From Ignicoccus islandicus DSM 13165 (lineage in GTDB: Archaea; Thermoproteota; Thermoprotei_A; Sulfolobales; Ignicoccaceae), in NCBI RefSeq assembly GCF_001481685.1, contig NZ_CP006867.1:1020001-1052000 (forward strand): a DNA stretch of 32,000 nt, read 5' to 3'. The notes beneath the pieces were generated by a model. That model was given only the letters and a program-made list of their open reading frames with translations. It had not been told where the DNA came from and searched no databases. Shown in pieces: positions 8,631 through 32,000 of this stretch. The translations under genes and the position numbers were made by a program. The first letter of the stretch is position 1, and each line of letters starts with the position of its first letter.

Positions 8631-8777
8631 TATAAACAAGGTTTCCCGAAGAAACCATTGCCTGGAAACATCCTTCACAAACGATTATCGAGTAATGCTA
8701 TCAAGATAGTCTGGAAACGTTTTATTCTGCGAAGGGTATATTGGGGTTTGACTCTATAAGTGTATTTGGGGTTGAAT
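8631..8777 (+). promoter_or_regulatory. conserved cassette leader, copy D
   Basis: Contains ctataaacaagg, gtttcccgaagaaac, cattgcctggaaac, cttcacaaac, an inverted repeat ATTATC/GATAGT (8684-8689 / 8705-8710), ctggaaac and ctataagtgtatttgggg. Confidence 0.5.
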
Positions 8778-8990
8778 TTGTCTTCCAAGGTTAGGGTTGT
8801 GCGTGCACGATATGAGAATGGAGTGCTAAAGCCTCTAGAGCCAGTAGAGCTTAAGGATGGAGAGGAGGTTCTGGTTAGGGTGGAAAGGCTCGAGAGTAGG
8901 GAGAATATTGTAGAGAAGTTCTATGGAAGACGCGGTCCAGCCCCGAAAGAGCTACTGGACGAGTTTATGCTTGAGGCTGAGGCTCAGTGA
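8760..8990 (+). CDS. AF2212-like (DUF104) antitoxin, cassette 4
   Basis: SSKVRVVRARYENGVLKPLEPVELKDGEEVLVRV matches the family pattern. The likely start is the TTG at 8778. The stop overlaps the PIN GTG start (GTGA). Confidence 0.85.
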   Translation: MYLGLNLSSKVRVVRARYENGVLKPLEPVELKDGEEVLVRVERLESRENIVEKFYGRRGPAPKELLDEFMLEAEAQ

Positions 8991-9436
8991 TACTGCTGGA
9001 CACTAATGCTATAGTATACTACTTACACCGCGTTGAGCCATACGCGTCGAGAGTGAAGCGGATCCTAGCAAGTAGGGAGGACTTAGCTTTAACTCTCAGG
9101 ATAGTTGACGAGGTAATCTTTACCCTTATAAGGCTTGAGGCTTTGAGGAAGCTCGAAATAAGGAGACTGGACCAGCTACGGGATTACATTAGGAAGCATG
9201 GCCTAGAAGAGTTCGATGACGCTATAAACGATGCTGATGAGATGATAAATAGCCTCGGAATTCTGGTCCTAGAAGACAAAGGTAGTCTTAGAGAACTCCT
9301 GGAGGTAATGAGGAAATATAGCCTACTCCCAGGAGATGCCTTGATTGCAGTAACCGCTAAGCATTATGGTATAGATACTATTCTAACGTTCGACGAAGAC
9401 TTCAAGCGAGTTCCGTGGCTCAAGGTAATCCCTTAG
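8987..9436 (+). CDS. PIN-domain ribonuclease toxin (VapC-type), cassette 4
   Basis: MILLDTNAIVYY... at the N-terminus and LPGDALIAVTAKHYGIDTILTFDEDFKRVPWLKVIP at the C-terminus. Confidence 0.9.
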   Translation: MILLDTNAIVYYLHRVEPYASRVKRILASREDLALTLRIVDEVIFTLIRLEALRKLEIRRLDQLRDYIRKHGLEEFDDAINDADEMINSLGILVLEDKGSLRELLEVMRKYSLLPGDALIAVTAKHYGIDTILTFDEDFKRVPWLKVIP

Positions 9437-9556
9437 CATACTAGGATTACCAACTACGATATCCTTGGTGAAGGAGGAGCAATCATAGTTTTAGCATACT
9501 GAATTGTAACTTCACTCTTTGCAAGGAGAAATTTTATAATAGTGATGGTATATAGG

Positions 9557-9633
9557 TGGCGAGCCCATCGAAATTTGAACCCGGGACCACGGGCTCCGAA
9601 GGCCCGCGCTCCTCCTGGCTGAGCTACGGGGCC
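9557..9633 (-). tRNA. tRNA-Arg (anticodon UCG) with aberrant T-stem and acceptor 3' strands; encoded CCA; possibly chimeric or a pseudogene
   Basis: The minus strand folds by hand as GGCCCCG TA GCTC AGCCAGGAG GAGC G CGGGC CTTCGGA GCCCG TGGTC CCGGG TTCAAAT TTCGA TGGGCTC G CCA. D and anticodon arms are perfect. The T stem has one mismatch and two G-U pairs, including G53-U61. The acceptor stem has one C-C mismatch and two G-U pairs. A TTTAAAT box lies about 27 nt upstream. Confidence 0.65.
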
Positions 9634-9819
9634 AGTTTCTACAGAGACGAGTTGGAAATTTAAAGTGAACTTCGAGTTGGCTTCGATTCGGAACCAATTT
9701 TATCCATTCGTTTTCGCGCGCTTGAATGAACTTTTTTATTCATTTTTGAAGGAAAGAGTTTTTCTATCATGGATCTCTACTAAACACATAGCCACCCAGT
9801 ACGGCGAAGTTTTGGAGGG

Positions 9820-10431
9820 CTTTCTATTCCCTATTGGGATTCTACTGGTCTATCTAGTTGAGAAGGATTTCATAAACGATATTCAGACTTTCTATTCCCT
9901 ATTGGGACTCTACTCATCACGTCAAATGGTTTCGGAAAGCGTAGTGCTACTTTCTATTCCCTATTGGGACTCTACATTACAACAACTAGCGGGGGTCTTC
10001 AGTTCTGGATGTCTTTCTATTCCCTATTGGGACTCTACCGAACTTGACGTGGTCTCGAAGGCCGTAGAAGAAGTGACTTTCTATTCCCTATTGGGACTCT
10101 ACGGATCGAAGCGAAGGTCGTCGGTCATCCGAGCTTTGCGATCTTTCTATTCCCTATTGGGACTCTACAGAATCTAGTGTTGATCGAAGTGAAGAGATCG
10201 GGAAGGGGACTTTCTATTCCCTATTGGGACTCTACATTGACAGGTACGTTAGGTGCGGGAGGTATCGATGTTTGAATCTTTCTATTCCCTATTGGGACTC
10301 TACCCTGAGGCGCCCCCTCCCGTCAGGGAGGGGGATATAAAAACTTTCTATTCCCTATTGGGACTCTACATAAAAGCACTAGAAGAAGCGAGTGAGTTAG
10401 AGCTACTTTCTATTCCCTATTGGGACTCTAC
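9820..10431 (-). CRISPR. CRISPR array: 10 repeats of 26 nt and 9 spacers of 36-42 nt, with one further degenerate repeat at 9760-9780
   Basis: The plus-strand repeat is CTTTCTATTCCCTATTGGGACTCTAC, starting at 9820, 9888, 9950, 10013, 10077, 10143, 10210, 10278, 10344 and 10406. The reverse complement GTAGAGTCCCAATAGGGAATAGAAAG ends in GAAAG like crenarchaeal repeats, so transcription is inferred on the minus strand. Repeat 9820 carries a C>T change. A 5-nt-deleted repeat lies 39 nt further left, consistent with a trailer end on the left. Confidence 0.95.
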
Positions 10432-17581: not shown

Positions 17582-18148
17582 ATGAAGGCTCTCGTAACTG
17601 CGTTACTGCTCTCAGCTCTAGTTTCCGCTTACATAGTAGGGGCACCGGAGCCCCATTGCTCTACCTGCCACACTCCAGCGAACCCGGTTAAGTTCGAGGT
17701 CAAGGGATTACCTAAGTACTACGTTCCGGGAAAGGAATATAACGTAACTATAGCTATAACGGAGAAATGCGAAGGGAAGTGCTGCGAAGGCTTCTACTTC
17801 TCTATACCAGCGGGAGATGTTAAGGTGAGCGATCCGAAGGCGATGAAGGTAGAGAGACCTCCCTTTGGAACCCCCTATCTGACTCACACTGAAGAGGGTA
17901 GGTTCAGAACTTCTTGGAGCTTCAAGTGGATAGCGCCTAAGGAGAGGATACCTCTAACCTTTACCGTTTCAGTACTCAAGGCAAACTGCGATAACGAGCC
18001 TACCGGAGACAACTTTTCTATAAAAGAGATAAAGGTATACCCGGAAGGGTACGTGCCTCCTAAGAGCTCTAACAGGTTGCCTTACTTGATAATAGGCGTT
18101 GCATCGATAGCCATTGCGACTCTGTTGCTAATACTCGCTATAGCGTAA
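17582..18148 (+). CDS. membrane-anchored secreted protein with a single CXXCH heme c motif
   Basis: It has a signal-peptide-like N-terminus (MKALVTALLLSALVSAYIVGA), then CSTCH at residues 26-30 (nt 17657-17671), and a C-terminal hydrophobic anchor (LPYLIIGVASIAIATLLLILAIA). Confidence 0.7.
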   Translation: MKALVTALLLSALVSAYIVGAPEPHCSTCHTPANPVKFEVKGLPKYYVPGKEYNVTIAITEKCEGKCCEGFYFSIPAGDVKVSDPKAMKVERPPFGTPYLTHTEEGRFRTSWSFKWIAPKERIPLTFTVSVLKANCDNEPTGDNFSIKEIKVYPEGYVPPKSSNRLPYLIIGVASIAIATLLLILAIA

Positions 18149-18184
18149 GGGCTTTTAGTTAGTTCAGCGAGGCTTTTTCTAGAA

Positions 18185-19204
18185 ATGCGCGTAAAATTGC
18201 TAGCTCTCATAGTAATTGCCCTCGCAATTTCCTCCCGCTCGCTACCGGTAATAGAACTGCACCAAGCGTATTACCAACTAGGCGAGCTAAGTCACGCAAC
18301 CGTAGTTGTTAGATCTGATTCGAATGAGGATTACCATGTAAGGGTTAAGTTAATTGGCGCGAAGCTGGAAAGCGGCGGAAACTCAATTGAATTCGCGAGG
18401 AAGGTTAAGTCGGGAGAGGCCATAAGGATCGATTTGAACTTCGTACCGAGGGAACCGGTAACTCGAATTAGATTGGAAGTGAACTCCGTTAAGGCCGAAG
18501 GCCTCTTGGGAAAGGTCCCCGTCCCAGGAGCGCTAGCCGAATACGAGATAAGAGAAAAGGTCATATCTATAGGGCTCTGGAACCCCCTTAGTAAGGCCGT
18601 TCGCTTCGTGGTTTCCTTCAATGCCGCCAATCCAGTTAAGGAGGTAGTTGAGAAGAAGTGCATCGAGAGGGGAACGGCGTACTCCACCTATTACTATTGC
18701 TTGAAGAAGACGTGTGCCGTGCCGTTCTACGGCAATTTGAACTGTACCAAGTGGGAGACCGTAGAGGAAGTGAACTACAGCTGCATTGAGTGGAGAGATG
18801 GGGGTTGCACCAAGTACTTGGTCGTCCCGATACGCCTCAATAAGTGCGTTGAAATGGTGGCCGGACCGGGATGTCTCTTATGGACGTGCGCGAAGTGGAA
18901 GGTAGAAAGGGAACCAGTGGAGTTCTGCAAGGTCGAAGTAACGGAGGTGAGGAAGCTCTGGCCTTCCTACGCTTTGTGGAGCGGGGAAGTGGAAGGTTTT
19001 GCGGAACTAAAGGTTCCATTCGAGTACAAGGAGGGGTCCCTCGAAGCTGGAGGAAACGAGGTCACGCTGTTCAGTGTTTACGCAGATGGAGAATTGGTCT
19101 TAGAGGCTAGGGAGAGCGCGTTCCCCGATATAATTCCTTTTATAGAGACGCTCATCCTGTACGCATTTTCCTTCTATTTCCTTTGGAGGAGTACCCACGG
19201 GTGA
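18185..19204 (+). CDS. secreted Cys-rich protein with a C-terminal membrane anchor (paralog of 19211-20386)
   Basis: It has an N-terminal signal-like segment, a central block with about 14 Cys (..YYYCLKKTCAVPFYGNLNCTKW...CIEWRDGGCTKY...CLLWTCAKWKVEREPVEFC) and a C-terminal hydrophobic helix. Confidence 0.7.
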   Translation: MRVKLLALIVIALAISSRSLPVIELHQAYYQLGELSHATVVVRSDSNEDYHVRVKLIGAKLESGGNSIEFARKVKSGEAIRIDLNFVPREPVTRIRLEVNSVKAEGLLGKVPVPGALAEYEIREKVISIGLWNPLSKAVRFVVSFNAANPVKEVVEKKCIERGTAYSTYYYCLKKTCAVPFYGNLNCTKWETVEEVNYSCIEWRDGGCTKYLVVPIRLNKCVEMVAGPGCLLWTCAKWKVEREPVEFCKVEVTEVRKLWPSYALWSGEVEGFAELKVPFEYKEGSLEAGGNEVTLFSVYADGELVLEARESAFPDIIPFIETLILYAFSFYFLWRSTHG

Positions 19205-19210
19205 TAGGGT

Positions 19211-20386
19211 TTGAGGGCCTTGCTTCTCATCGCTGCATCGCTAATACTAGCGTTCGCTTGCGTGGACGTTACCGTTTACCCGCTGAGCCAGTTCAAGCCC
19301 TTCGAAACGTCCACAGCGGTCTTTCGACTCCACTCCGAATGCCAAGCCGAGGTAAAGCTAATTGCGAAAATTTCCAATGCGACTGTTAGCGGAGCCAAGG
19401 GATTCGATTCAGTTGTTTCCAACTTGCTTATCTTGGAAAGGGAGCTCAAGAAGGGCGACCTAACCGCCTTCGCCACGCTCGTTCCTACCTCCGACAGAGT
19501 CAGCGTCCATATTTCTCTTTATATAAATGGAAGGCTTTCCAAGGACGAGGTAACGTACTTGGGAACGCCGCCTTGCGTCAGGGTCTACGCCTCCTCGCTG
19601 AATTTGAGGGATGCGTTAAAGGGCTTCGAAGTACCGGAGAACGCTAAGGCGCTCGATGTGCTTGTAATTAATCAGTGCGATGAACGTGTCTCGAGCTTGC
19701 TAAGCGTTAGGTTCCCGTTGGGCAAGGCGATGCTTTTCGCTCCCTACTACAAATGCGACGAATACGAGACCATAGCGTACACTGTTAAGGAATGCGCCAA
19801 AGACGAGTTAGGAACGCCGATTACAATTTGCGTAAAGAGCTCCAATACCGGACCCTTCAAGACCATTTACGTGAAGAAGAGCGCCCAACCGGTAGTGAGG
19901 AAGTGCACGGATTGCGTTCCAGTAGAGACGGCGAACGGAACTAATTACGTTTGTTCGAAATGCGAAACGTATGTTAGGGAACCAGAAGTTCTGGAGGAGA
20001 TATCCGTTAGGGAGCCTAGATGCTTCGAGACGAGGTGCGCGAAATGGAACGAAATAGCTAGGACCCTAAGGGTTTGTAGGGAGTGGAGCGGTAAGGCGAT
20101 TCGATCGAACGTTGAAGTAATAGGCAACTACTTCTCCTTGGAAGTTCACTTAGATAGAGGGGAAGCTAAGGAGTACCTCATACCCTTCGTCCTCACTCAG
20201 AGGTATTACGTAATAGGTTCCTTCTCGAGGGCAGTTGAAGTTCCAGTAGCGGTAATTGAGTACGGAGGAAGCGAGGTTAGGGTGAACGAAGCAATACCTA
20301 ACTACGGATACGTCTTCACAGTATTACTAACGGTCCTCTCCCTTCTCTCAATTTCGTATTTCTTGATGAAAGTAGTGGGAGGATAG
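19211..20386 (+). CDS. secreted Cys-rich protein with a C-terminal membrane anchor (paralog of 18185-19204)
   Basis: The TTG start lies 7 nt after the upstream stop. It has a signal-like N-terminus, a Cys-rich block (YYKCDEYE...CTDCVPVE...YVCSKCETY...RCFETRCAKWNEIARTLRVC) that shares the xCAKW...C pattern with the upstream gene, and a C-terminal hydrophobic helix. Confidence 0.7.
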   Translation: MRALLLIAASLILAFACVDVTVYPLSQFKPFETSTAVFRLHSECQAEVKLIAKISNATVSGAKGFDSVVSNLLILERELKKGDLTAFATLVPTSDRVSVHISLYINGRLSKDEVTYLGTPPCVRVYASSLNLRDALKGFEVPENAKALDVLVINQCDERVSSLLSVRFPLGKAMLFAPYYKCDEYETIAYTVKECAKDELGTPITICVKSSNTGPFKTIYVKKSAQPVVRKCTDCVPVETANGTNYVCSKCETYVREPEVLEEISVREPRCFETRCAKWNEIARTLRVCREWSGKAIRSNVEVIGNYFSLEVHLDRGEAKEYLIPFVLTQRYYVIGSFSRAVEVPVAVIEYGGSEVRVNEAIPNYGYVFTVLLTVLSLLSISYFLMKVVGG

Positions 20387-20411
20387 GAGCCCAGAGACCC
20401 CGTAGGGGGTG

Positions 20412-20558
20412 TGGTGGGCCCGGGGGGATTTGAACCCCCGACCTACGGGTCTCTCCTCCCGGGTCTTAACGCTCCAGACGACGATCATCGCCTTTCGGCT
20501 CTACCAGACCCGTAGTACGTCTGGAGCCCGCCGCTCTGCCTGGCTGAGCTACGGGCCC
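20412..20558 (-). tRNA. tRNA-Trp (anticodon CCA) with a 70-nt intron at the canonical 37/38 position; encoded CCA
   Basis: The minus strand reads GGGCCCG TA GCTC AGCCAGGCA GAGC G GCGGG CTCCAG [70-nt intron] A CCCGT AGGTC GGGGG TTCAAAT CCCCC CGGGCCC A CCA. The intron contains CGTCTGGAG, which is complementary to the exon sequence CTCCAGACG, as expected for a bulge-helix-bulge splice substrate. Confidence 0.8.
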
Positions 20559-20885
20559 ACCATATCTCATCCGTTGGTCCGATATCTAACGCTCGTAAAC
20601 CAGTTTATAAGTGTTTATATCAACGCACCTTCGTTAAGTTCATTTCCAAGCATCGAAATACCGTTACCGATGCTAATGCGTTTCGGTGATGGTACTATAT
20701 TTACGGAGTGCGTGCTATATCGTTATTATAAGAACTTTCTCGAGGTAGGTCTGAGAGTATTATCCAAACTGCATATGGTTATTTAGTTACGGCTGGTACC
20801 GTAGGGTGCTTATGCAATTAATATATCCCCGTTCGCTACGCCAATTTGGTTACAAGCTTAGAGAACGCTAGACGGGGCGGGAAAT

Positions 20886-21446
20886 ATGATAGGGTTATTA
20901 AAAGGTTTTATTCTGCAGCTCTCTAGTATGCCAATATCTAGCATGCCAATAACTACTAACCGAAATAAGGGATCAGGGAGGAAAGCCATATTAGTGCGTT
21001 TCAACGACCGTGCATTAAAGAAGTCTATTTTTAGGTACCAACTATGGAGAATCATTTCGCTAACATACGTTAATGGCCCCATGCCTATAGAGGGCTCGAA
21101 CGCGCTAAATCAAGGATTCATTGGAGTTCCGTTAAGAGGACCACCTCGAGACAAGTTCTTTCTCTATATTCTAGTACGTGAGAGCATCGTGGGAAGGAAG
21201 CTATCGAGGAAGTACGAGAAGTTTCTCGAAAAGGAGATCTCGAGAATTGTTGAAGAAATTTTCGAGAATAGAGACGAAATAGATGCGAAAGACTTCATCG
21301 AGAAATTCTTCTCAAACATTGAGGAGAGACTAAATATGAGATTAGAGAACAAGGAGATTCTGTACGACTTCTTTACTACTGGTCGAACAGTTAAGCGACG
21401 AGGTGGTGAGGCAATAGAACTAATATATAATGACCTTGCTTCGTAA
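20886..21446 (+). CDS. hypothetical protein; the real start is probably the internal ATG at 21081
   Basis: The C-terminal two thirds is a charged, helical-looking sequence (KYEKFLEKEISRIVEEIFENRDEIDAKDFIEKFF...). The first 65 codons cover a 15-bp tandem DNA repeat and look non-coding. Confidence 0.4.
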   Translation: MIGLLKGFILQLSSMPISSMPITTNRNKGSGRKAILVRFNDRALKKSIFRYQLWRIISLTYVNGPMPIEGSNALNQGFIGVPLRGPPRDKFFLYILVRESIVGRKLSRKYEKFLEKEISRIVEEIFENRDEIDAKDFIEKFFSNIEERLNMRLENKEILYDFFTTGRTVKRRGGEAIELIYNDLAS

Positions 21447-21655
21447 ATCACTATGTAATGTTTTTAATAAGGACACGTTGTCAGTAACGAGTATTTTTCT
21501 AATGCCTCTCGGAGCCCTTCCATGGTTTATCTATACGAGCAATCTTAACTACTTCAATTCCACCTTGAATAGCGAAGCGTAGTTACCGTTTATATGGAAA
21601 GTAAATTGGGGTAACTCTTAGATATCGCGATTCCTCGCACAACTCCTCGAAACAG

Positions 21656-23710
21656 TTACTTGAACGCATCAATTAAAAAGAGAATGTCTTTAATGGCGGT
21701 TTCCATCACTTCTTCAACGTTACGAGATGACCTTTGATAATCGAATATCTTTGCAAGCCACCATGAAAGGTACCTCCTCTTGATGTCCTCATCTAAATGT
21801 TCTAATCCGCTCCCTAGTCCCCAAGATCTCACGTGAGCATCTACTATTTCGCGCAACCTCAAGGATCTACCAGTTTCCCCTTCACTGAGTTTAATCAAAA
21901 CTTCCCTATCCATCATCTTATCGAAGACCTTCTCGAAACTTTCGATTAGTTTGAACCAAGCCGTTAGCCAAATCGGACCATTTGTAACGAGTTCTTTAAT
22001 CTTAGGTGGAACTTCTCGCTCCAGAAATTCCAGCACTTCGTTGAGCAAGCTCTCTTCTACTTCCACTTCCGCGTTATCCAGACGGCATGCGACTTTCTCT
22101 TCACACGCTCTGTAGAGGTCGCAATATCGAACGTCGCAGAAGGCCAAGCGGTGGCGAAGCGCGACCAATCTATGTGCTCTGTTTTTATTCCCTATAACGC
22201 ATCTATATCTTCCCTTGAAAGCTGCCACAGATTCTCCTAAAAGATCTCCTAGAACTGGAGAAATAGCGATTCTGACGACATCGGTCGATTCGCTTATCGA
22301 CTGAATGTCGCCTTTTAATTCTTCAATTAAATTGCTATACGAAAGCTTACCGAATTCGAAGCTAGGAATCTCGATAACTAAATCAACGTATAACCTACTA
22401 CCATGGAGTTCCGCACAATTACACCTAGCTCTCTTGATCCCTTCATCTATGTTACAAGGGTACGCAACGATACGATTTATCCTAATAGGTAAGACCCTTC
22501 GAGCGCATTGATGTGTAATACCCACTAGCGTTTCTAATGCATTTAAAAGTCCATTGGCTTCAACGGATTCGAGGCAAGCCATTAAATGGGCTTTAGGTTT
22601 ATCCAGCGGTAGCTTTATGCTATTAACTCGAATGTAGCAATCTAATCCTCGCGAAAGGGCTTCGCAAAGCGTCCCCGGAGGTATGTGACGAAAGACGTCC
22701 TCTGGTTGCGGAAGCACTGGTCTCTTTCTTTCCGTTAAAGTGAACATTTCCATGGCGATTCTCGCTTTCTCTTGGTCGCTAGCTTCCTTACTTTCCTTTA
22801 CAATCTTCAGAATGAACTTGTACCTCCTTTTAATGCAAGGTCTAACCCGCAGGCACGGCGTCAGACTGAAGTACTTGACGCTATAGTCACATCGGCTAAC
22901 ATCGAAGCCTCTCCGGAACCTATCGGGCAACGTTCTAAGCAATTTTTCCAATGGATCGACGTTCCCTATGTTCTCTTCTAATACTTCGCTTGCCTCGCGT
23001 ACTAGGTGGTTTACTAAAGAAAGTAGCGTACATACGTCGTTTGGTATGCACGCTTCTATGCGGAGTTTGTTCCATACAACTCCGTAGGCGCCCTTAATTA
23101 TTCTCGATTTGCTACAATCCGTTGGCAAATAAGTAGTCATTTCGTATATAGCGCTCTGTATCCCGGCAGTCAATGGCTTAATACTTTTTTCGATATAGGG
23201 AAATTTCTGATGACAATTTGAATGCTCTCTTAAGCTCATAACTTTCAAGTCAACCCTCTTGCGAATTACTTCGTCGTTACCGTACTTCTTATTCAATCTA
23301 CTCAAGAAGTTGCAGTGCAAGTTTTGATTCTCATAGAATAGTACTATGACCACCAGCTCGACTCTGTTATTACTTTCGTTTAGTAGCTCTTTTGCTGTTT
23401 TCAGCATTTCATCTACTGCTGCAGTTGGGTGCCTAACCGAGGAATCGGAGTAGGTGACTTTGATGGTGTATGGAGAGGTCGTTGTGAACGGTATCTTCAT
23501 GCATTTCTTACTGCCACAGGTTTCGAACCACTCTTCGCCGAAGTCGTTCCTAGGCGCGTAGAGATGTACGTTTTCAACTAGCTCGCCTTGAGGCTTCGTT
23601 TCAACTAAGTAATGGCTTACGAGCAACGCGTTAAGTACTTTTAAGGCTCTATTGAGGTCGTCGGTGAATATGTATAATAGTTTACGTCTACCTTCTCTCA
23701 CTCCTCCCAC
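21656..23710 (-). CDS. large Cys-rich soluble protein of unknown function (684 aa)
   Basis: An uninterrupted 2-kb ORF in an AT-richer island. There are no hydrophobic segments and no Walker A, HD, GGDD or nuclease motif visible by eye. About 30 Cys include the clusters CGSKKC and FCDVRYCDLYRACEEKVAC. The start overlaps the upstream gene by 13 nt. Confidence 0.75.
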   Translation of the reverse strand: MGGVREGRRKLLYIFTDDLNRALKVLNALLVSHYLVETKPQGELVENVHLYAPRNDFGEEWFETCGSKKCMKIPFTTTSPYTIKVTYSDSSVRHPTAAVDEMLKTAKELLNESNNRVELVVIVLFYENQNLHCNFLSRLNKKYGNDEVIRKRVDLKVMSLREHSNCHQKFPYIEKSIKPLTAGIQSAIYEMTTYLPTDCSKSRIIKGAYGVVWNKLRIEACIPNDVCTLLSLVNHLVREASEVLEENIGNVDPLEKLLRTLPDRFRRGFDVSRCDYSVKYFSLTPCLRVRPCIKRRYKFILKIVKESKEASDQEKARIAMEMFTLTERKRPVLPQPEDVFRHIPPGTLCEALSRGLDCYIRVNSIKLPLDKPKAHLMACLESVEANGLLNALETLVGITHQCARRVLPIRINRIVAYPCNIDEGIKRARCNCAELHGSRLYVDLVIEIPSFEFGKLSYSNLIEELKGDIQSISESTDVVRIAISPVLGDLLGESVAAFKGRYRCVIGNKNRAHRLVALRHRLAFCDVRYCDLYRACEEKVACRLDNAEVEVEESLLNEVLEFLEREVPPKIKELVTNGPIWLTAWFKLIESFEKVFDKMMDREVLIKLSEGETGRSLRLREIVDAHVRSWGLGSGLEHLDEDIKRRYLSWWLAKIFDYQRSSRNVEEVMETAIKDILFLIDAFK

Positions 23711-25881
23711 TCCTCATCCCAATCTGAATAGAAGTCAGCTAAAGCACCGATCGAGTGGGCCAATCTGTGTTCGAAGTTCGAGTAGACTATGCAATCTGAA
23801 CCCCCCTCGGGGCTTGTTGCCTCATAATACTTGTTAGGAACCCTTTCAAGCGTCCTCGAGATCCCAACCAGTTTACACGTCCTTACTGAGCCTTCCTTAG
23901 ATGGCTCGCCTCTCCGGACGTATATACCGAAAGCGTGTTGGGTTCCCTCCTCGCTCATCAGCACTTCGGTTATTCTCGAAATATTACTGCTTATCTCTAA
24001 GTTATCCTCTCCCGAGGGTACCATTATGAAATACACTGATTCCGGAGGGTTCATTGCGTACAAGAGGAACCTATCGGTAGCGTCGCCTTGTAGGCTAAGT
24101 ACGAGCGATGGTGTTCTTAGTTCTATCGATTTTCCATACTTTTGTACTGGTATGAAATAGAATTTGTCTCTCAATATCAGCGCTGATTCCAGTGATGGCG
24201 AGAGCACAAGGGTATCCTTTGGGTCGATAACTGTCAGACAGTATTTCATGTCCCTCTTCAACCCTTCCTCTGTACACCACAAGTGCTTCTGAGGATCTCT
24301 GTCAACGATTGTTATAGACGTAACCACTGGATAATCCGAAATAGAACATAGATAGCCTTCTCTACTTCCGTTCTCCTCCAGTTCCACGCTTTCATTGGAG
24401 GGAACGTTTATTTCAGAGCTTCCAGAAGTAGCTTCCAAACGTTCGCTGTGAACTGGAGGTCGCTTAACCCCATAGAAATAATCTGGCATTACCTCGAGGA
24501 ACTTACCGAAGGCTTGTTCTATTAAGATCACGTGGGTTAATACTCTAGAGAAGACTCCGAATCCTAAAATGATTATTCTATTTGACCTTAGAAGGTGATG
24601 GAACCTGAGTGTTCTTCCAAATACGTTATCTAATTTCACGCAAGGCATGGATTCAGCATGAAACAACCTTCTCATAAGGTCGAGACTTGAAGCGACCAGT
24701 GACGACACAGAGAATATCTTTATGGGAAAGATGTAATCGATTACGTCCGAACTGCTTCGAGTCTCGTCAAGCGCAAGTGGATATATTACTAGGAAGAGGA
24801 GCGATACAAGTAGGGGTAGGAACATCCAAAGGTACTTCAAGATGCAATCGGGCGATTTCGTAAAGTACTTCCATTTAAACGGACATTCTAACATCAGCGG
24901 TATTGAATATGGCCATATAAAGTAATCTCTCCCATCTGAGTGCAACTTCGAAGATGGATTCGAAGCGAAGTAGAAGAGCTCCAAGGCGTATATTACGTTG
25001 AAGTAAAATAGGGTGAAAAGGGAGATTTGAGGGATCATGTTCTCTAGGAACGTTATCAGATCTCCCTGCGGTTCTGCTGCGTTCGCAGAGATAAGCCCAA
25101 GGGCCAACGTAATAACCCATGCCACCGCGTACTCTAATATAACTTCATTGCTTCCCTGAGCCCTCGGGAATAGATGCGTAAAGTAGATTAGATTAAAGGC
25201 CACAACTACGGCTTCAAGAACTGTTACGCAAAGCTGGTATAGGTACCGGTATAAATATGGTACGTGCTCGGAGTGGACGACATCATGCCACGTAAGTGTA
25301 GGCATTATAACTACGATCATGAAGAGAAAGAGACCGAGCCTAGAGTAGGGAGGATACTTATGAACGTATTTATCTAGTACTTTTAACGAAAACTCAGGCT
25401 TGCCCATATGTACTAGAAGAAGTGTTAAAACTAGAGGTGTTAGAAAAAACAGTAAGCACGTAAGTGGGGTCGATAGAAGTGAGAGCAGATGTGAGAGCAA
25501 CTGAATAGTTATATCCAATATTATAATCAGCATGGGATTGACAAGTTCGCTGAGGATAAGCTCGATCGAATTTATAAGTAGCGTTCTCAACGAGTCTGAC
25601 AATACCACGAGGACGTAAAAGATGGTAGATAAGGTAAAGGCGACCATCCTCAAGAAAATGGACTTTCTGCGCAATAGCAGTTTTAAGGAGGCAAAAAGTA
25701 ATAGTGAGATAAATGTTGTAATCAAGAAGGAACTACTGTAACTTGGAAGGTTCGAATTGCGATAACTTAGTAATTGCGAAAAGTATAAGTTAGCCACCAA
25801 TAACGCGGCAACGAGTTGCGCAAGCAATACTGCTAGATAAGCAATAGTCTCTATGTCGGCCCTGTCCTCCGCTTTACTCAA
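23698..25881 (-). CDS. polytopic membrane protein with a KTN/RCK-like cytoplasmic C-terminal domain (727 aa), unknown function
   Basis: Residues about 12-400 contain roughly 10 hydrophobic helices. The C-terminal part shows the ordered motifs RIIILGFGVFS (435-445), ITIVDRDP (523-530), LQGDATD (597-603) and GEDNLEISSNISR (624-636), ending in an acidic tail DWDEEWEE. Confidence 0.75.
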   Translation of the reverse strand: MSKAEDRADIETIAYLAVLLAQLVAALLVANLYFSQLLSYRNSNLPSYSSSFLITTFISLLLFASLKLLLRRKSIFLRMVAFTLSTIFYVLVVLSDSLRTLLINSIELILSELVNPMLIIILDITIQLLSHLLSLLSTPLTCLLFFLTPLVLTLLLVHMGKPEFSLKVLDKYVHKYPPYSRLGLFLFMIVVIMPTLTWHDVVHSEHVPYLYRYLYQLCVTVLEAVVVAFNLIYFTHLFPRAQGSNEVILEYAVAWVITLALGLISANAAEPQGDLITFLENMIPQISLFTLFYFNVIYALELFYFASNPSSKLHSDGRDYFIWPYSIPLMLECPFKWKYFTKSPDCILKYLWMFLPLLVSLLFLVIYPLALDETRSSSDVIDYIFPIKIFSVSSLVASSLDLMRRLFHAESMPCVKLDNVFGRTLRFHHLLRSNRIIILGFGVFSRVLTHVILIEQAFGKFLEVMPDYFYGVKRPPVHSERLEATSGSSEINVPSNESVELEENGSREGYLCSISDYPVVTSITIVDRDPQKHLWCTEEGLKRDMKYCLTVIDPKDTLVLSPSLESALILRDKFYFIPVQKYGKSIELRTPSLVLSLQGDATDRFLLYAMNPPESVYFIMVPSGEDNLEISSNISRITEVLMSEEGTQHAFGIYVRRGEPSKEGSVRTCKLVGISRTLERVPNKYYEATSPEGGSDCIVYSNFEHRLAHSIGALADFYSDWDEEWEE

Positions 25882-26010
25882 CCTACTGGGACCGCGTACT
25901 TCCTCAATACGAGACTTATATTAGGCTTCTCGTTTTCAAGTATTTAAACTTTGGGTCGGTAGTAACGTTTTAATTCCAATACCTTCGTCAGAAAATGTGC
26001 GTGAAATCGC

Positions 26011-27534
26011 ATGAAACGTGCACAAGTACTTATAACGATCCTTCTATTTCTTTCAACAATTGCGTTGTCATCGCAAATATCTATAGGGCTAGGCAATTGG
26101 GGGCCTCCTAACCCGGTCCGCTTCTACCCAAGAGGTCCGGCTTACGTAATAACTAGCTTCGCCTACGATACGTTGGTGTGGAAGGACTCCAAGGGAGTAA
26201 TACCTTGGTTAGCCGTCAAGTGGGTAAAACTGAACGATACTGCATGGGTTTTCTATTTGCGAAAAGGTCTTACTTGGAGCGACGGTGAGCCCTTAACCGC
26301 CGAGGACGTAGCTTTCTCCTATAACTACCTTAAGGAATCTAAATGGGCATGGAAGGATATGAGCGTCTTGAAGAGAGCGGTCGCGTTGAACGAAACGACT
26401 GTTTTAATAGAATTGAATAGGCCCTTCCCTCTATTTGTAGAGGAGTACGCTACCACGGTCTTCGTCATTCCCAAACGCGTTTGGTCCTCAAAGCCTTCGC
26501 TAAGCGTATCGAGCGGACCTTACGTCCTCAAGTCCTATAGTCCCGGAAGCGGCTACGTCTTCGTAAAGAATCCGAGGTTCTGGGGTCCCGAACCCCTTTT
26601 CGATCAACTAGTAATACCTTCAATGCAGTTCACCTCGCCTCAAGCGCTCGCCTCGGCCTTCATTTCCGGTAAAGTAGACGCAATAACCCTAATGGGCAAG
26701 GCATGGAGATTGATAAAGGTAATAGAAAGTAGGAAGCCTAATGCTATAATAAAGAAAGGGCCTATGTACTGGGTCCTCTTCTTAGGCTTTAACTTAAATA
26801 AATACCCATTCGACGTAAAGGAGTTCCGTAAGGCAGTGTCCCTCGCTTTGGACTTGAAGCAGCTAGTTCTTAGAAGCGTGGGTAGCTTCGAAGGGGCCTT
26901 ACCGGGAGTCCCTGGATACGTTCCGCCTTACAGCGCGTTCTACAATAAGAACGTAGGCGTTCACGAGTACTCACCGAAGGAAGCGGTCCAATTGATGGAG
27001 AAACTCGGAATTAGGGATTCGGATGGAGACGGTTGCGTTGAACTTAACGGAAGGAAGTGGAGGCCTCTCCTAGTTACGTCGAAGAGTTGGGTAACGGAGG
27101 CCTTAATAGTTAAGGAAATGTTAGAGAGGGTCGGAATATGTGTGAACGTGAAGACCGTAGCTGGAACGAAGCAACTCGATTGGATAGTTAAGAACGGTGC
27201 GTTCGATATGGAGATAAACGGCCACGGCGCGACGGGTAACAACCCGTTCGCGTTAACGTGGATATTCAAAGCATTTGGAACTCCTTGGTTCAATGAGAAA
27301 TACGAAAAACTAATGAGGAAGTTGACCTCTGCAAAGAACTTGGAAGAGGCTGAGGAAATAGCTAAGGAAGCTCAAGGAATAATAGCGGACGAGGTGCCCA
27401 GGATAGCCCTCTACTATCCCTATCAGTTCCTCGTCAGCGACGGCAAGGCCCATTGGTTCTTTACCTATAATGGAATAGATGGCGGAATTCCGCTACCATA
27501 TAACAAGCTAGCTCTATTGAAACCGATCCGCTGA
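26011..27534 (+). CDS. ABC transporter substrate-binding protein, family 5 (peptide/nickel type)
   Basis: It has a signal/anchor N-terminus. The length of 507 aa and blocks such as LTWSDGEPLTAEDVAFSY and SGPYVLKSYSPGSGYVFVKNPRFWG are typical of DppA/OppA/NikA-type binding proteins. Confidence 0.8.
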   Translation: MKRAQVLITILLFLSTIALSSQISIGLGNWGPPNPVRFYPRGPAYVITSFAYDTLVWKDSKGVIPWLAVKWVKLNDTAWVFYLRKGLTWSDGEPLTAEDVAFSYNYLKESKWAWKDMSVLKRAVALNETTVLIELNRPFPLFVEEYATTVFVIPKRVWSSKPSLSVSSGPYVLKSYSPGSGYVFVKNPRFWGPEPLFDQLVIPSMQFTSPQALASAFISGKVDAITLMGKAWRLIKVIESRKPNAIIKKGPMYWVLFLGFNLNKYPFDVKEFRKAVSLALDLKQLVLRSVGSFEGALPGVPGYVPPYSAFYNKNVGVHEYSPKEAVQLMEKLGIRDSDGDGCVELNGRKWRPLLVTSKSWVTEALIVKEMLERVGICVNVKTVAGTKQLDWIVKNGAFDMEINGHGATGNNPFALTWIFKAFGTPWFNEKYEKLMRKLTSAKNLEEAEEIAKEAQGIIADEVPRIALYYPYQFLVSDGKAHWFFTYNGIDGGIPLPYNKLALLKPIR

Positions 27535-27538
27535 GAAG

Positions 27539-28411
27539 GTGCTCCGCTTGAGGCCCCTCCAAGTAGTTTTTTCGATTCCGATTGTCCTCGTCACGGCTTA
27601 CCTAATCTCGAGGTACGGACTAGGTAGTCCCTTTAGCGACCTAGGCGCCAACGGCTTCCTAACTGAAGAGCAACGAAAGGCCTTGGAAGAGGCCTACGGC
27701 CTTAGCGGCGATCCCTTACTCGGTTTCATTAATTTCACTTTATCCTTACCGAGGGGCGGACCGCCGAGCTCTATTTACTCCAAACCTTCCCTAGAGCTAG
27801 TTCTGGGTCCCTTCGCGCTAACGGTAGCGATCGTGGCCTTCGCAGCCACCGCTTCCGTGATCGTTGCAAGCGTAACTTTCGTTGCTAATCCAAAGGCATT
27901 GAAGCTCCTAGGGAGCGCGGCCTTCGTGCCAGAGTACTTCTACGCGATTGCGTTCCTCGTAACCTCGTGGTACTTCGGATGGCCCAACCCCACCCTGAAC
28001 TTCTCTTACGATAAGTTCCTCGCTTACTTCGCAATAGTTTGCCTATCCATATCTTCGAAGCTAGCCCACCTAATCGACGAAATGGCTAGCGAGTTGTCAT
28101 CCTCCCAGTTCGTAGCGTTCTGGAAAGCAGTAGGGTTGAGCGATCGCGCAATCAGAAGGGTTGAACTTAAAGCTATGTGGAAGGGGCTTTTAGCTTTCCT
28201 ATTAACTTTATCAGCGGAAAGCTTAGAGAGAAGCGTCATGGTTGAATACTTGATAAACTTTCCCGGAATAGGCTACTTCCTCTTCACGTCAGTAGTAGAA
28301 GTGGACGTTGGACTGGCGGCATCTAGCTTCGCTCTCCTTTCCATTGCCGCCTACGCATTGGTTCAATTGGCTTCCTCGGTAGGTGATTCCAGATGGAGTG
28401 TGTGGAAGTAG
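27539..28411 (+). CDS. ABC transporter permease (DppB/OppB/NikB-like)
   Basis: GTG start. There are multiple hydrophobic helices. AYGLSGDPLLGF resembles the N-terminal GLDxP block. KAVGLSDRAIRRVELKAMWKGLL resembles the ARAKGLSxRxVxxxHxLRN loop. Confidence 0.65.
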   Translation: MLRLRPLQVVFSIPIVLVTAYLISRYGLGSPFSDLGANGFLTEEQRKALEEAYGLSGDPLLGFINFTLSLPRGGPPSSIYSKPSLELVLGPFALTVAIVAFAATASVIVASVTFVANPKALKLLGSAAFVPEYFYAIAFLVTSWYFGWPNPTLNFSYDKFLAYFAIVCLSISSKLAHLIDEMASELSSSQFVAFWKAVGLSDRAIRRVELKAMWKGLLAFLLTLSAESLERSVMVEYLINFPGIGYFLFTSVVEVDVGLAASSFALLSIAAYALVQLASSVGDSRWSVWK

Positions 28412-29115
28412 AGCCCCTAGCTTCCCCAAGTCCGGCCTTCCCATTAGGGGGAGACCCCCTAGGAAGGGACGCGTTGTGCGTGTTCCTCTCCTTGCTGCCC
28501 AACACTTTAACGGCCCAAGTTGCTGCCATAGCCACTTCCTTCGCCTTCTTGTGGATATTGGTTCTATTAGCAGCTTCATCAAAAATTAGAAGGATCGAAA
28601 GGAGTTCGCTTAGCTTGGCCAACGGCTTCCCCAAGTTGCCATTCTTCGTCTTCCTCTCCTTAGTCGTCTCCTTAACCCCGCTTCAGATAGGCGCGCTCGT
28701 TGGAATATTAGGTTCCATTAGGTACGCAATAGGGCTTCTGGAGAGGGCCGAGGAAATAATGAACGAGTGTTTCTCAGTGGCGAGCCTTTCGTCGGGCGGA
28801 ACTAAGATATGGGTCGTTAGGAAACACGTCTTGCCCCACCTAATTGGCTTAATTCTAAGGTCTTCCCTAATAGTAGGCGCGATAGCCGTTCACGCGGAAG
28901 TTGGCTTGGGAATGATGGGGCTGGAAGACGTTAGGCATCAAGGTATAGGCCAACTAGTCTACTTGGTTCTAAACACTCCCGGCGCTATCCAAACCCAGGC
29001 CGGATTGATCCAAGCGCTCTTCGTTACCTCATTTTCAACGTTCCTATCGGCCGTTCCTATGATACTTAGAGCTTCATTACCCTCGATCCGTGATAGGAAG
29101 AGGTACCTGAAGTGA
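28393..29115 (+). CDS. ABC transporter permease (DppC/OppC/NikC-like, short)
   Basis: Hydrophobic helices are present. SLSSGGTKIWVVRKHVLPHLIGL resembles the EAA-loop block (GAsxxxIIxRHILPN). HAEVGLGMMGLEDVRHQGIG resembles EAxLSFLGLG. The start is uncertain. Confidence 0.6.
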   Translation: MECVEVEPLASPSPAFPLGGDPLGRDALCVFLSLLPNTLTAQVAAIATSFAFLWILVLLAASSKIRRIERSSLSLANGFPKLPFFVFLSLVVSLTPLQIGALVGILGSIRYAIGLLERAEEIMNECFSVASLSSGGTKIWVVRKHVLPHLIGLILRSSLIVGAIAVHAEVGLGMMGLEDVRHQGIGQLVYLVLNTPGAIQTQAGLIQALFVTSFSTFLSAVPMILRASLPSIRDRKRYLK

Positions 29116-29642
29116 GGAGGGCCTTAGTTCTCGGAATTGGTAATAGGATGTATGGCGAGGACGGATTCGGTAGCTGTTTAGGGGAGTTCCTATCCAAACA
29201 GAAGCTAAGCGACGTTGAAGCTAGGGACGGAGACTACATGGGAATGGGGCTAATAGGTTGGTTGGAAGGCTTCTCCTTAGTGATCTTCTTGGACGCTGTA
29301 GTTGATGACGTGAAAGAGGACCTAGTAGTATACAAGATCGTTCCAGAGAACGCTACTTACGAGGAGTTAGCGGAACTGCCCGTAGACGCGCACAAAGCCT
29401 CTCCAACCCAACTGGCCGCATTCGCGAAGCGTTCGGGAATATTCGATGGCGAGGCCTACTTAGTTGGCTTGAAGGCTGAAAAAGTCTGCTGGCCGTGTCC
29501 GCTTACCGAGAGAGCGGCGAACTTGATGCCCCTGGCTGTGGACAAGGTCAACGAGATCTTGAGGAAGTACGGCTTCAGTACGTTCAGCAAAGAGGGGCTA
29601 GAGGAGTGGGTTCGCTCTAACTGCATGGAAATAAAGTTCTGA
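29112..29642 (+). CDS. [NiFe]-hydrogenase maturation endopeptidase (HycI/HyaD family)
   Basis: The GTG start overlaps the permease stop (GTGA). ALVLGIGNRMYGEDGFG matches the GIGNxxxGDDGxG motif. An FLDAV block and a later VDAHKASP (His ligand region) are also present. Confidence 0.8.
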   Translation: MRRALVLGIGNRMYGEDGFGSCLGEFLSKQKLSDVEARDGDYMGMGLIGWLEGFSLVIFLDAVVDDVKEDLVVYKIVPENATYEELAELPVDAHKASPTQLAAFAKRSGIFDGEAYLVGLKAEKVCWPCPLTERAANLMPLAVDKVNEILRKYGFSTFSKEGLEEWVRSNCMEIKF

Positions 29643-29697
29643 ACGCCGAGTACCAAGCTTATGAACATAGTCTAAGAGAGAATAGGGTGGATGGGAG

Positions 29698-29958
29698 ATG
29701 GGTAAAATAAAGAGACTACTCCTAGATACGCTTAAACCCCTCAAGGGCTTGAGCATCATCGACATTGCTAAGGAAATAGTCGATATGGAGGGCCTCGGTA
29801 GAGTTACTATAAAGGTCGATGAAATGGACGTCGAAACCGTTACCCTTTCTATAATAGTTGAAGGGGACGACATTGACTTCGAGAAGCTGAAGGCGGCGTT
29901 GGAAGAGAGAGGCGTTGTAATACATTCGATAGATGAAGTGACTGCCGAGAAAGAGTAA
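29698..29958 (+). CDS. DUF211-family small protein
   Basis: 86 aa. IKRLLLDTLKPLKGLSIIDIAKEI...ETVTLSIIVEGDDIDFEKLKAALEERGVVIHSIDEV matches the archaeal DUF211 pattern. Confidence 0.65.
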   Translation: MGKIKRLLLDTLKPLKGLSIIDIAKEIVDMEGLGRVTIKVDEMDVETVTLSIIVEGDDIDFEKLKAALEERGVVIHSIDEVTAEKE

Positions 29959-29995
29959 ATGAGCCCCGTTTCACCTTCCTAAAAGGTAGTGAATT

Positions 29996-31384
29996 GTGAT
30001 TAAGGTCTATAATACTCTAACTAGAAAATACGAGGATTTTCAACCCCTTCAACCTCCTCTTGTAAGAATGTACGTTTGCGGTCCTACTGTCTACGATCAC
30101 AGTCACATAGGCCACGCGAGAACTTGGGTCGCCTTCGATGTTGTGAAGAGGTACTTACGCTTAAGAGGGTATTTCGTAATACACGTTCAGAACATAACTG
30201 ACATCGATGATAAGATAATCAATAGAGCCAACGAGCTTGGGGTTAGCTGGAAGGAAATAGCAGATAAGTACGCAAAGGAGTACTTAGATTTAATGAAAGA
30301 GATGAAGGTATTCCCTACCATTCATCCGAGAGTTACCGAACACATTAGCGATATAATAGAATTCATAAAGGACTTAATTGAAAAGGGATACGCATACGTA
30401 ACTCCTTCCGGGGTCTACTTCGATGTGGACAAGTATCCATACTACGGTCAACTTTCCGGTGTGAAAGACAAGGAGATGTGGAGTCAAGAGACCTTCGTGA
30501 AGGACAAGAAGAACCCATACGATTTCGCTTTGTGGAAGTGTGCTAAGCCCAACGAGCCTTGGTGGGAGAGTCCTTGGTGTAAGGGGAGGCCTGGATGGCA
30601 CATAGAGTGTTCCACTATGAGCAGTAAGTACCTGGGAAAGCAATTCGACATACATGGCGGGGCTAGGGACCTAATTTTCCCACATCATGAGAATGAGATA
30701 GCGCAGAGCGAGGCCAGGTTCGGGGTAAGGCCATGGGTAAAGTACTGGCTTCACAGCGGTTACTTGACTGTAAAAGGGGAAAAGATGAGCAAGAGCTTGG
30801 GTAACATAGTTCCCTTAGTAGATCTATTGAAAGAATATCCGGCCGATGTGGTTAGGTACTGGCTCACCACTGCCCACTATCGCTCGGAACTAGATTTTTC
30901 ATATGATAGACTTGACCAAGCGAAGGTAGCCCTTGAGAGAATGAAGATGAGCGTTGACAAGCTTAGGAGAACTGTCGAGAAAGGCTACCCCAAGGGCTCG
31001 CTCAAGGACGAGGAGGTAAAGGCAATTTACGATATATGGAAGCTTAGGGAGGAGTTCCATCAAGCTATGAGCAACGACTTCAATACTCCAGAGGCTTGGG
31101 CCAAGGTAAGGGAGGCCCTCAGAATAGCCAACGAGACGGATTCGTGGGAAGTGGCTGCGATAACGCTCAACTTCGTTGAAGAGGCCGACCAAGTGTTTGC
31201 TGTATTTGAAGAGAAACGCGTGGAGGGCGTGGAACCGTTCGTGGACCTATTAGTTAGAGTTAGAAGTAGGTTAAGGGAAAGGAAAATGTGGGAATTGAGC
31301 GACTGGATAAGATCCGAACTAGATAAGCTCGGGGTAAAGCTATTGGACAAAGGTAGGGAAACTGAATGGAGGTTCGCGAAATGA
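29996..31384 (+). CDS. cysS: cysteine--tRNA ligase
   Basis: GTG start. Contains MYVCGPTVYDHSHIGHARTW (HIGH), the WHIECS zinc-site block, FPHHENEIAQSEA and KMSKSLGN (KMSKS). Confidence 0.95.
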   Translation: MIKVYNTLTRKYEDFQPLQPPLVRMYVCGPTVYDHSHIGHARTWVAFDVVKRYLRLRGYFVIHVQNITDIDDKIINRANELGVSWKEIADKYAKEYLDLMKEMKVFPTIHPRVTEHISDIIEFIKDLIEKGYAYVTPSGVYFDVDKYPYYGQLSGVKDKEMWSQETFVKDKKNPYDFALWKCAKPNEPWWESPWCKGRPGWHIECSTMSSKYLGKQFDIHGGARDLIFPHHENEIAQSEARFGVRPWVKYWLHSGYLTVKGEKMSKSLGNIVPLVDLLKEYPADVVRYWLTTAHYRSELDFSYDRLDQAKVALERMKMSVDKLRRTVEKGYPKGSLKDEEVKAIYDIWKLREEFHQAMSNDFNTPEAWAKVREALRIANETDSWEVAAITLNFVEEADQVFAVFEEKRVEGVEPFVDLLVRVRSRLRERKMWELSDWIRSELDKLGVKLLDKGRETEWRFAK

Positions 31385-32000
31385 GGATAGCTAGGGATGC
31401 ATACGCTAGAGAGAAAGGGGCTTACTTGATATACGGATGGGCGGAAGGCGTCGAAGTGAAGGAGGAAGACGCGGAAGTAACTGAATTCTTGAGGAAGGTA
31501 GAGGAGGAGGTTAGGAGAAAGTACGTATTAGAGAAAGTAAAGGACGTTCCAGTAATAAGGGCGTATAGAGACTTTATGTGGAGAATTGGCATTGATCCAA
31601 CTAAGATAAGGCCTTCCTCAGAGGCACTGCTCAGAAGGGCCTTGAGGGGTAGCATCCCTACAATAAATTCTCTGGTCGACCTAGGGAACGCGGTTAGCTT
31701 GAGGTATCTAGTTCCAATAGGAATATATGATTTGGACAAAGCGAAGGACTCAATGATACTGAGAAAAGCGAGGGAAGGCGAGATATTTCTCCCTATTGGG
31801 AAAGGGGAGGTGAGGTTGAACGGGAACGAGGTAGTATTAGCGGACGAAGAGGGACCAATGCACTTGTTCCCTTATAGGGACTCAAGGAGAACCATGGTGA
31901 CCCTAGACACGAAAAGGGCCTTGGTTGTGGGAGCGGGAGTTAACGGCGTAGAAGAGGAACTAGTGAAGAAGGCAGTGAGCGAAATACTGAACTTCCTCCG
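31381..32000 (+). CDS. B3/B4 tRNA-binding-domain protein (PheRS beta-subunit-related), 3' end outside the window
   Basis: This ORF is not in the supplied track because it is open at the window edge. The ATG overlaps the cysS stop (ATGA). The translation ...IRAYRDFMWRIGIDPTKIRPSSEALLRRALRGSIPTINSLVDLGNAVSLRYLVPIGIYDLD... matches the B3/4-domain family. Confidence 0.7.
   Translation, partial: MRIARDAYAREKGAYLIYGWAEGVEVKEEDAEVTEFLRKVEEEVRRKYVLEKVKDVPVIRAYRDFMWRIGIDPTKIRPSSEALLRRALRGSIPTINSLVDLGNAVSLRYLVPIGIYDLDKAKDSMILRKAREGEIFLPIGKGEVRLNGNEVVLADEEGPMHLFPYRDSRRTMVTLDTKRALVVGAGVNGVEEELVKKAVSEILNFL

Follow-up and report, generated by a model that had tools for sequence, protein, structure and literature searches.

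In a 32,000-nucleotide stretch of the genome of Ignicoccus islandicus DSM 13165 (the window, to whose coordinates all positions refer), we found a 5.4-kb AT-rich island that carries three genes, here termed A, B and C. The island is probably a horizontally acquired insertion between the promoter of a tRNA-Trp gene and that of an ATP-binding cassette (ABC) transporter operon, and its three genes probably constitute a self-contained, undescribed module. Within the libraries searched, the sequence families and the gene architecture have not been described previously. The module is real and rare, and we infer that its function is accessory and that it travels by horizontal transfer. The window sequence itself is matched by Logan contigs from two sequencing runs, at 100% and 99.99% identity.

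The insertion is delimited by comparison with contig JBPMUC010000211.1 (L006), from a metagenome-assembled genome (MAG) of the nearest relative available, which is collinear gene for gene with the window from 13.4 to 32 kb (synteny over 18 kb). The two share a Na/H exchanger, the tRNA-Trp gene with its intron, the binding-protein gene of the ABC transporter (P0004 in L006, 75% identical to the window protein), two permeases, a 176-aa gene, DUF211, CysRS and a B3_4 domain protein, together with three secreted proteins (187, 339 and 393 aa in L006) that have counterparts in the window. At the orthologous site of L006 the island is absent and both sides are syntenic. By blastn, L006 8990-9885 corresponds to window 19688-20582 and L006 9986-15936 to window 25996-31952, with about 100 bp in place of the island. 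L006-homologous intergenic sequence may reach inward to about 20623 and 25913, which could narrow the bounds to about 20624-25915. On the left, conservation takes in the tRNA plus about 25 bp of upstream sequence, with weaker similarity through the TTTATAAG box at 20604-20611, and the conserved right flank comprises the last 20-90 bp ahead of the binding-protein start. The extra DNA therefore lies between two promoters and not inside the tRNA, and the insertion point falls about 25-65 bp upstream of tRNA-Trp, past the TATA box of the tRNA gene.

An earlier note on this DNA had named the neighbouring tRNA as tRNA-Trp, and Rfam agrees (Table 1); ARAGORN misses the gene, and the anticodon was read from the sequence. 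The same note had seen no integrase and no repeat of the tRNA at the far boundary, and library and repeat searches reconfirmed both. None of the three open reading frames (ORFs) of the island matched an integrase in Pfam, NCBIfam or PHROGs, and neither a repeat search nor blastn-short (word size 7) of 20300-20700 against the window found a tRNA repeat of at least 10 nt at the far boundary, the longest match near 25-26 kb being at most 9 nt. A candidate target duplication of 10 bp, with TTTATATCAA at 20614-20623 and CTTATATTAG at 25916-25925 where L006 has CTTATTTCAA once, was rejected as too short and AT-rich. The adjacency of the island to the tRNA looks incidental. Among distant MAGs from the contig scan, L003 has no tRNA beside the binding-protein gene and L004 has tRNA-Thr(UGU) there, not tRNA-Trp. 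Two Logan assemblies (L001 and L002) both break inside tRNA-Trp, at 20531-20533; we considered this as a hint of excision or of a repeat and drew no conclusion from it, the sole repeat seen at the break being 17 nt common to tRNA-Trp 20539-20555 and tRNA-Arg 9614-9630. At the other end of the island, the divergent intergenic region contains two TATA-like elements, TAATATAAG at 25923-25915 and TTTAAATA near 25941-25948 (both as read on the minus strand), which may be promoters. The part of this region beside the binding-protein gene is homologous to L006, and the neighbouring ORF 26011-27534 is 100% identical to EYM_06030.

Table 1. Features of the island and its flanks, in window coordinates, and lengths of the A and B proteins at the other loci.
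Feature	Position	Strand	Description	Basis
Inserted AT-rich island	20583..25995		maximal extent	blastn against L006, G+C, codon usage
Gene A (EYM_06020)	23698..25881	-	727 aa, TTG start	ORF, family alignments
Gene B (EYM_06015, WP_075050101.1)	21656..23701	-	681 aa from GTG 23701; 684 aa if from 23710	
Gene C	20886..21446	+	186 aa; small third member, convergent with A-B	
Translational-coupling junction	23698..23715	-		sequence
Divergent intergenic region, A / ABC-transporter binding-protein gene	25882..26010		129 bp	sequence, L006 alignment
tRNA-Trp (anticodon CCA)	20415..20558	-	74-nt intron; landmark outside the inserted DNA	Rfam RF00005, 54.9 bits
A + B, L008			761 + 674 aa	
A + B, L009			852 + 831 aa	
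A + B, L011			>509 + 687 aa	
A + B, L012			803 + 683 aa	
A + B, L013			937 + 753 aa	
A + B, L014			694 + 683 aa	
A + B, L015			835 + 726 aa	
A + B, L016			835 + >672 aa	
A + B, L018			782 + 716 aa	

The island also differs from its surroundings in composition. Its G+C content is 43% against about 49%, and lies at 0.40-0.46 across 20.5-26 kb with flanks at 0.48-0.52. The segment is compositionally foreign, as had been proposed; the contrast is real but smaller than first estimated, the flanks having been put at 50-55%. In the three island genes, G+C at third codon positions (GC3) is 0.44-0.49, and in 18 other genes of the window it is 0.53-0.63. Under core codon usage, the log-likelihood per codon is -0.03 to -0.06 for the island genes and +0.04 to +0.18 for every core gene; negative values in the window are confined to the island genes and to toxin-antitoxin (TA) genes. 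The three genes are the only ORFs of at least 100 aa within 20583-25995, and their coordinates and lengths agree with the earlier description, in which B was taken from 23710. In codon-position G+C and purine bias they look like ordinary coding DNA, and given the base composition of the island, the chance probability is about 4e-18 for a 684-codon open frame and about 3e-19 for one of 727 codons.

We searched for relatives in several ways. A word-indexed search of 5.8 billion proteins returned only the genes themselves. HMMER, run exhaustively over 1.84 billion protein representatives with a single query in which B was joined to the last 328 residues of A and to C, returned 13 proteins: four B-like (P0084-86 and P0090; 674-753 aa, E 1e-25 to 6e-10), six A-like (within P0087-P0093; 694-973 aa, E 9e-17 to 6e-5) and three self matches. 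The distant relatives thus number about ten, at 15-30% identity. Sub-alignment searches added one further metagenome locus and nothing in IMG/VR, and no relatives of the module were found in IMG/VR, PLSDB plasmids or INPHARED phages. The genes had been called orphans. They matched no described family, as that term implies, but they do have distant homologues in other archaeal loci.

Contig look-ups showed that every A-like gene is directly followed, on the same strand, by a B-like gene. The order A-B-C recurs in all eight other loci that reach past B, making nine loci of thermophilic archaea with the window. Across genomes A, B and C diverge in step, with correlations between their pairwise identities of r = 0.83, 0.64 and 0.78, which argues that the three genes are inherited as a unit. 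From one genome to the next the module has other neighbours, mostly housekeeping genes (for example RsmB, AIR synthase, tRNA-splicing endonuclease, thioredoxins, MoaE, prefoldin, 3-hydroxyacyl-CoA dehydrogenase and PGI). Since they include CdvA, Vps4, Rpb6, tRNA intron endonuclease and prefoldin, the hosts are Thermoproteota-type archaea. Module G+C lies below that of the surroundings in 7/7 other loci measured (0.41-0.50 against 0.48-0.66), and the GC3 of A and B lies under that of every neighbouring gene in six of seven. The module is also missing from the two other sequenced Ignicoccus species: the HMMER scan returned no member from I. hospitalis or I. pacificus, and the binding-protein locus of I. 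pacificus does not carry it. Three observations had been named at the outset as incompatible with an undescribed foreign system, namely homology to a housekeeping complex, synteny in core positions, and normal G+C and codon usage; none of them was made.

Gene A encodes a membrane protein, as previously proposed, with about 11-12 hydrophobic segments by hydropathy (within residues 12-400) where roughly 10 helices had been counted. The ORF is 100% identical to EYM_06020, which is annotated at only 569 aa; the family alignment, the hydrophobic N-terminal segments and a Logan gene call favour 727 aa. Between members, the membrane part is hard to align and differs widely in length. Conservation begins at a loop with invariant C333 and C346, continues through two helices and extends into a Cys/His-rich, alpha/beta C-terminal domain of about 320 residues (approximately 405-727). 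Invariant residues in this domain are C414, N434, G440, G442, R446, H450, E480, C512, D527, H533, C536, D556, T557, S596, D600, P613, M620, P622 and R676. The C333/C346 loop and the C-terminal domain are two helices apart and would therefore lie on the same side of the membrane, and because B has neither a signal peptide nor a transmembrane (TM) segment, we take this conserved side of A to be the cytoplasm. The weak conservation of the membrane part argues against a substrate-specific transporter and would fit a role as an anchor, as a membrane domain of the sensor type or as an effector that damages the membrane.

Gene B encodes a soluble, Cys-rich protein, as first described: it has no TM segment, 3.2% Cys and seven invariant Cys. 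Its ORF (21656-23710, minus strand) is 100% identical to EYM_06015. The invariant residues are D14, H91-P92, R158, C218-x-P-N (with P220 and N221), C283-x-R (with R285), C346, C376, C416, R436 and C522-D-x3-C527 (with D523). The window proteins A and B keep every family-invariant residue. The coupling of the two genes, one of the initial claims, recurs at the other loci, although the overlap is not the 13 nt first reported. The start codon GTG of B (23701-23699) overlaps the stop codon TGA of A (23700-23698) in a 4-nt GTGA, and GAGGAG (23715-23710), within the 3' end of A and 8 nt upstream of the B start, serves as a predicted ribosome-binding site. In 8/8 other A-B junctions examined, the end of A contains GGTGA or GGTGG at 4-10 nt ahead of the B start, and the two genes either overlap or have a gap of at most 10 nt. 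This arrangement, present at every junction, favours GTG 23701 as the most likely start of B in the window, and by the same sequence signals A and B are translationally coupled in every locus examined.

The module had been regarded as a pair of genes, but it comprises three, the small plus-strand gene C being the third member. We assign C to the module because a small gene follows the pair elsewhere and shares its G-P and G-x-P motifs. A gene of 147-247 aa, usually convergent, stands after B in 8/8 loci that extend past B (all but L016). In an alignment of seven such proteins with C of the window, from which that of L018 was left out, G64, P65, G80 and P82 are invariant. Pairwise E-values between C-like proteins are weak, and the divergence of C tracks that of A and B. 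A 121-aa version of C on record (P0083) starts past the invariant G-P motif. The 5' part of C also contains a 15-nt tandem repeat in 2.3 copies (TCTAGCATGCCAATA, 20922-20955), which encodes SSMPISSMPI.

No accepted match to any of the window proteins was found in Pfam, NCBIfam, PADLOC or PHROGs, and PDB sequence and profile searches were empty. For defence systems specifically, A, B and C of the window had no match in PADLOC-DB 2.0, nor did ten A members; nine B members gave only three unrelated single-member matches (E 0.015-0.05), and none of 5027 PADLOC models was accepted as a match in 19 members. Scattered sub-threshold matches to VCIP135_N (E 0.1), AbiJ_NTD4 (E 0.12, in one of eight C members) and DUF3349 (one member) were dismissed as noise. 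The locus tags of the genes were not mentioned in the literature searched. Structure prediction followed by Foldseek had been suggested as a check and was run for A, giving models too poor for fold assignment. AlphaFold2, from an eight-sequence alignment, reached a predicted local distance difference test score (pLDDT) of 40.4 and was used for secondary structure only, and Foldseek with this unreliable model found nothing below E 0.2 in the PDB. For B, a single-sequence model (pLDDT 36.5) was unusable.

Gene coupling, co-divergence and topology suggest that A, B and C may form one membrane-anchored complex. In such a complex, A would contribute its bundle of about 12 helices, which is poorly conserved, together with the conserved Cys loop on the cytoplasmic side and the alpha/beta domain, whose Gly-rich loop is Rossmann-like, while B would be made 1:1 with A and dock on its cytoplasmic face. 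The invariant Cys and His residues of A and B could hold metal sites (Zn or Fe-S) or form disulfides; intracellular disulfides are common in crenarchaeal hyperthermophiles. Our best single guess at a function is speculative, namely a role in conflict (virus or plasmid defence, or exclusion) in which B and C would sense and A would execute. We put this forward tentatively, as the function that best fits the sporadic distribution, atypical composition and fast divergence of the module. A more specific combination, in which A-B-C is a metal-binding (Fe-S or Zn) membrane-anchored machine that moves independently of an integrase, acts in conflict with viruses or plasmids and consists entirely of new folds, is more doubtful still.

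Several points weigh against horizontal acquisition of a conflict module. I. pacificus is non-syntenic upstream of the binding-protein gene. The direction of the indel is therefore drawn from composition and not from an outgroup, and the difference could formally be a deletion in L006. No integrase, transposase, att repeat or other mobility gene was seen in or near the module at any locus. The GC3 of C is host-like in L014 and L009, which is a poor fit to recent co-transfer of all three genes. The contrast is most extreme in L014 (4860-9684), where GC3 is 0.47 in A and 0.51 in B against a neighbour mean of 0.89, and 0.80 in the linked C-like gene; no simple co-transfer model accounts for this split. 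Part of the A/B bias could therefore be gene-specific, for example through selection for low expression. As to the proposed defence role, no nuclease, NTPase or protease domain was found.

Among possible functions, anti-virus defence or abortive infection has some appeal, though we would not bet on it: B, with C, would sense infection and activate A, which would damage or depolarise the membrane. The patchy presence and absence between relatives, the low and atypical G+C in nearly every host and the divergence to 15-30% identity are consistent with such a role, as is a membrane part far less conserved than the cytoplasmic part, a feature of many membrane effectors. TA or CRISPR-related genes also lie within 10 kb in some loci (PIN and AAA_15/21 in L009, a weak Cas6 and PIN in L014, PIN and HEPN/MNT in L015), and the window holds VapBC genes and an array of clustered regularly interspaced short palindromic repeats (CRISPR). 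VapBC genes are very common in hyperthermophilic archaea, however, and their proximity is weak evidence; the neighbours in L008, L011 and L013 are housekeeping genes only, and the module lies outside clear defence islands. The earlier comparison with sensor plus membrane-effector defence modules found no direct support, since the members matched no PADLOC, Pfam or PHROG family and showed no known sensor or effector domain or recognisable effector chemistry. A different membrane function, that of an accessory Kef/Trk-type ligand-gated transporter or channel with a KTN/RCK-like domain gating on a dinucleotide and B and C as redox- or metal-sensing subunits, is unlikely. It was prompted by the motif order of the A C-terminal domain: strand, G-x-G-x-x-A-R, hhD-x-D (V-V-D-x-D), G-D-A-T, L, then hhhh (a hydrophobic strand). 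G440-x-G442-x-x-A/S-R446, D527 and G599-D600 are invariant or nearly so, AlphaFold2 predicts beta-alpha-beta alternation in A 435-643 (pLDDT 53-68), and hhalign sets A 435-454 on TrkA 2-21, the beta1-GxGxxG-alphaA stretch. KefC-KefF and TrkA/TrkH combine a polytopic protein with a cytoplasmic alpha/beta domain in which the first strand is followed by a Gly-rich loop and the next by an acidic residue, with a GDAT-like motif further on, as is predicted for A, and the overlapping gene for a soluble partner recalls kefF-kefC. The KTN/RCK-like label given to A in the earlier note nevertheless holds for motif order only. TrkA_N (PF02254) was not matched in any of ten A members (hmmscan, E<=1), and hhalign of two A alignments with Escherichia coli TrkA aligned just 20-23 columns at a probability of 0.1-0.4%. 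Unlike KTN transporters, A has an insertion of 45-65 residues between alphaA and the next strand and invariant Cys and His residues, and its membrane domain, which belongs to none of the Na_H_Exchanger, TrkH or ion-channel families, is the least conserved part where a transporter should be most conserved, in proteins that range from 694 to 973 aa. B, at 680 aa, is also not flavodoxin-like, in contrast to KefF.

The module might instead be the surviving cargo of a decayed integrated virus or plasmid and serve the element itself, in superinfection exclusion, egress or DNA transfer; we consider this improbable, and about on a par with a Kef/Trk-type role. The foreign composition and clean insertion beside a tRNA gene agree with it, as does module G+C of 0.41-0.50 in hosts of 0.47-0.66, as if all copies came from one AT-richer pool. 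The three partial tRNA copies that lie between VapBC cassettes of the window resemble tRNA-Arg integration scars, which would mean that tRNA-linked integration does occur in this genome. SSV-type and pNOB8-type integrase elements of Thermoproteota are similar in forming an AT-richer segment beside a tRNA that is absent from a close relative, but the island has no whole or split integrase, no duplicated tRNA segment and only three genes, and it is inserted upstream of the tRNA promoter. In none of the nine loci was there a hallmark gene of a virus or plasmid, an att repeat or a fragment of an integrase, the virus, phage and plasmid collections searched hold no relatives, and exactly the same three genes recur everywhere with no variable accessory genes around them. 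Chance ORFs or decaying pseudogenes in junk DNA would agree with the self-only result of the word-indexed search and with the very low AlphaFold confidence. This explanation is effectively refuted by open frames of 684 and 727 codons (chance probability below 1e-17), by distant homologues with the same length, order and coupling, by the retention of all family-invariant residues and by coding-type codon-position G+C and purine bias. The remaining probability goes to other accessory functions.

Comparison with other described systems gives partial likenesses to the proposed mobile accessory module. Kiwa (KwaA/KwaB) and Zorya, examples from PADLOC and DefenseFinder of defence systems in which a membrane protein is paired with a large soluble protein of unknown fold, also have a compact operon, patchy distribution, low G+C, rapid divergence and a poorly conserved TM part; the module differs in having about 12 TM helices rather than 2-4, in being archaeal only, in matching no PADLOC model and in lying outside clear defence islands. 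The 'dark matter' islands of Makarova and co-workers are reportedly uncharacterised archaeal gene clusters for which a role as mobile element, defence system or membrane complex has been predicted, and the module resembles them as a conserved uncharacterised cluster with a membrane component, sporadic distribution and foreign composition. As far as the libraries searched show, the A-B-C trio belongs to no described family.

Little of the conflict and accessory repertoire of hyperthermophilic archaea has been charted, most catalogues being built on bacteria. The module described here is strictly linked in nine genomes, has no match in any profile library tried and has only about ten members among the 1.84 billion representatives scanned. 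Should its function prove to be defence or exclusion, it would add a type specific to archaea, with new folds and possibly new chemistry in view of the invariant Cys/His sets; if the module forms a gated membrane complex, the architecture would be new. A clean 5.4-kb insertion with neither integrase nor att site also prompts one to ask by what route modules of this kind spread among Thermoproteota. With EYM_06015, EYM_06020 and gene C, a defined and testable candidate is at hand in a cultured organism.

Other parts of the window contain further features. The CRISPR array, beside tRNA-Arg at 9820-10431, has ten copies of a 26-nt repeat (CTTTCTATTCCCTATTGGGACTCTAC) and nine spacers of 36-42 nt; Tandem Repeats Finder did not report it, and the window contains no cas genes. 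None of the nine spacers matches elsewhere in the window, island included, which is uninformative about the module because a non-match is expected if it acts in defence. The tRNA-Arg gene (9560-9633) scored 35.9 bits in a later scan and was unlisted in the whole-window Rfam gathering scan. A second AT-rich stretch (4900-9640, G+C 0.40-0.45) holds three VapB/VapC-like cassettes (5199-5432/5344-5868, 7179-7391/7388-7840 and 8760-8990/8987-9436), each made up of a small antitoxin and a PIN protein ending in FDEDF[KR]R[IV]PWLKVIP. A fourth, degenerate antitoxin repeat lies near 6234-6306 and adjoins only a short PIN-like ORF (6411-6644). Partial copies of the tRNA-Arg 3' half stand between the cassettes at 6005-6061, 6971-7027 and 8583-8610, the gene at 9560-9633 being the only whole one. 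This stretch looks like the product of serial integration into tRNA-Arg or of tandem duplication of a tRNA-linked cassette. At 17582-20386, three consecutive genes encode Cys-rich proteins of 188, 339 and 391 aa, each beginning with a signal-like segment and ending in a hydrophobic anchor; they are the window counterparts of the three secreted proteins of L006, for which no Pfam match is on record, and the trio is kept in both genomes.

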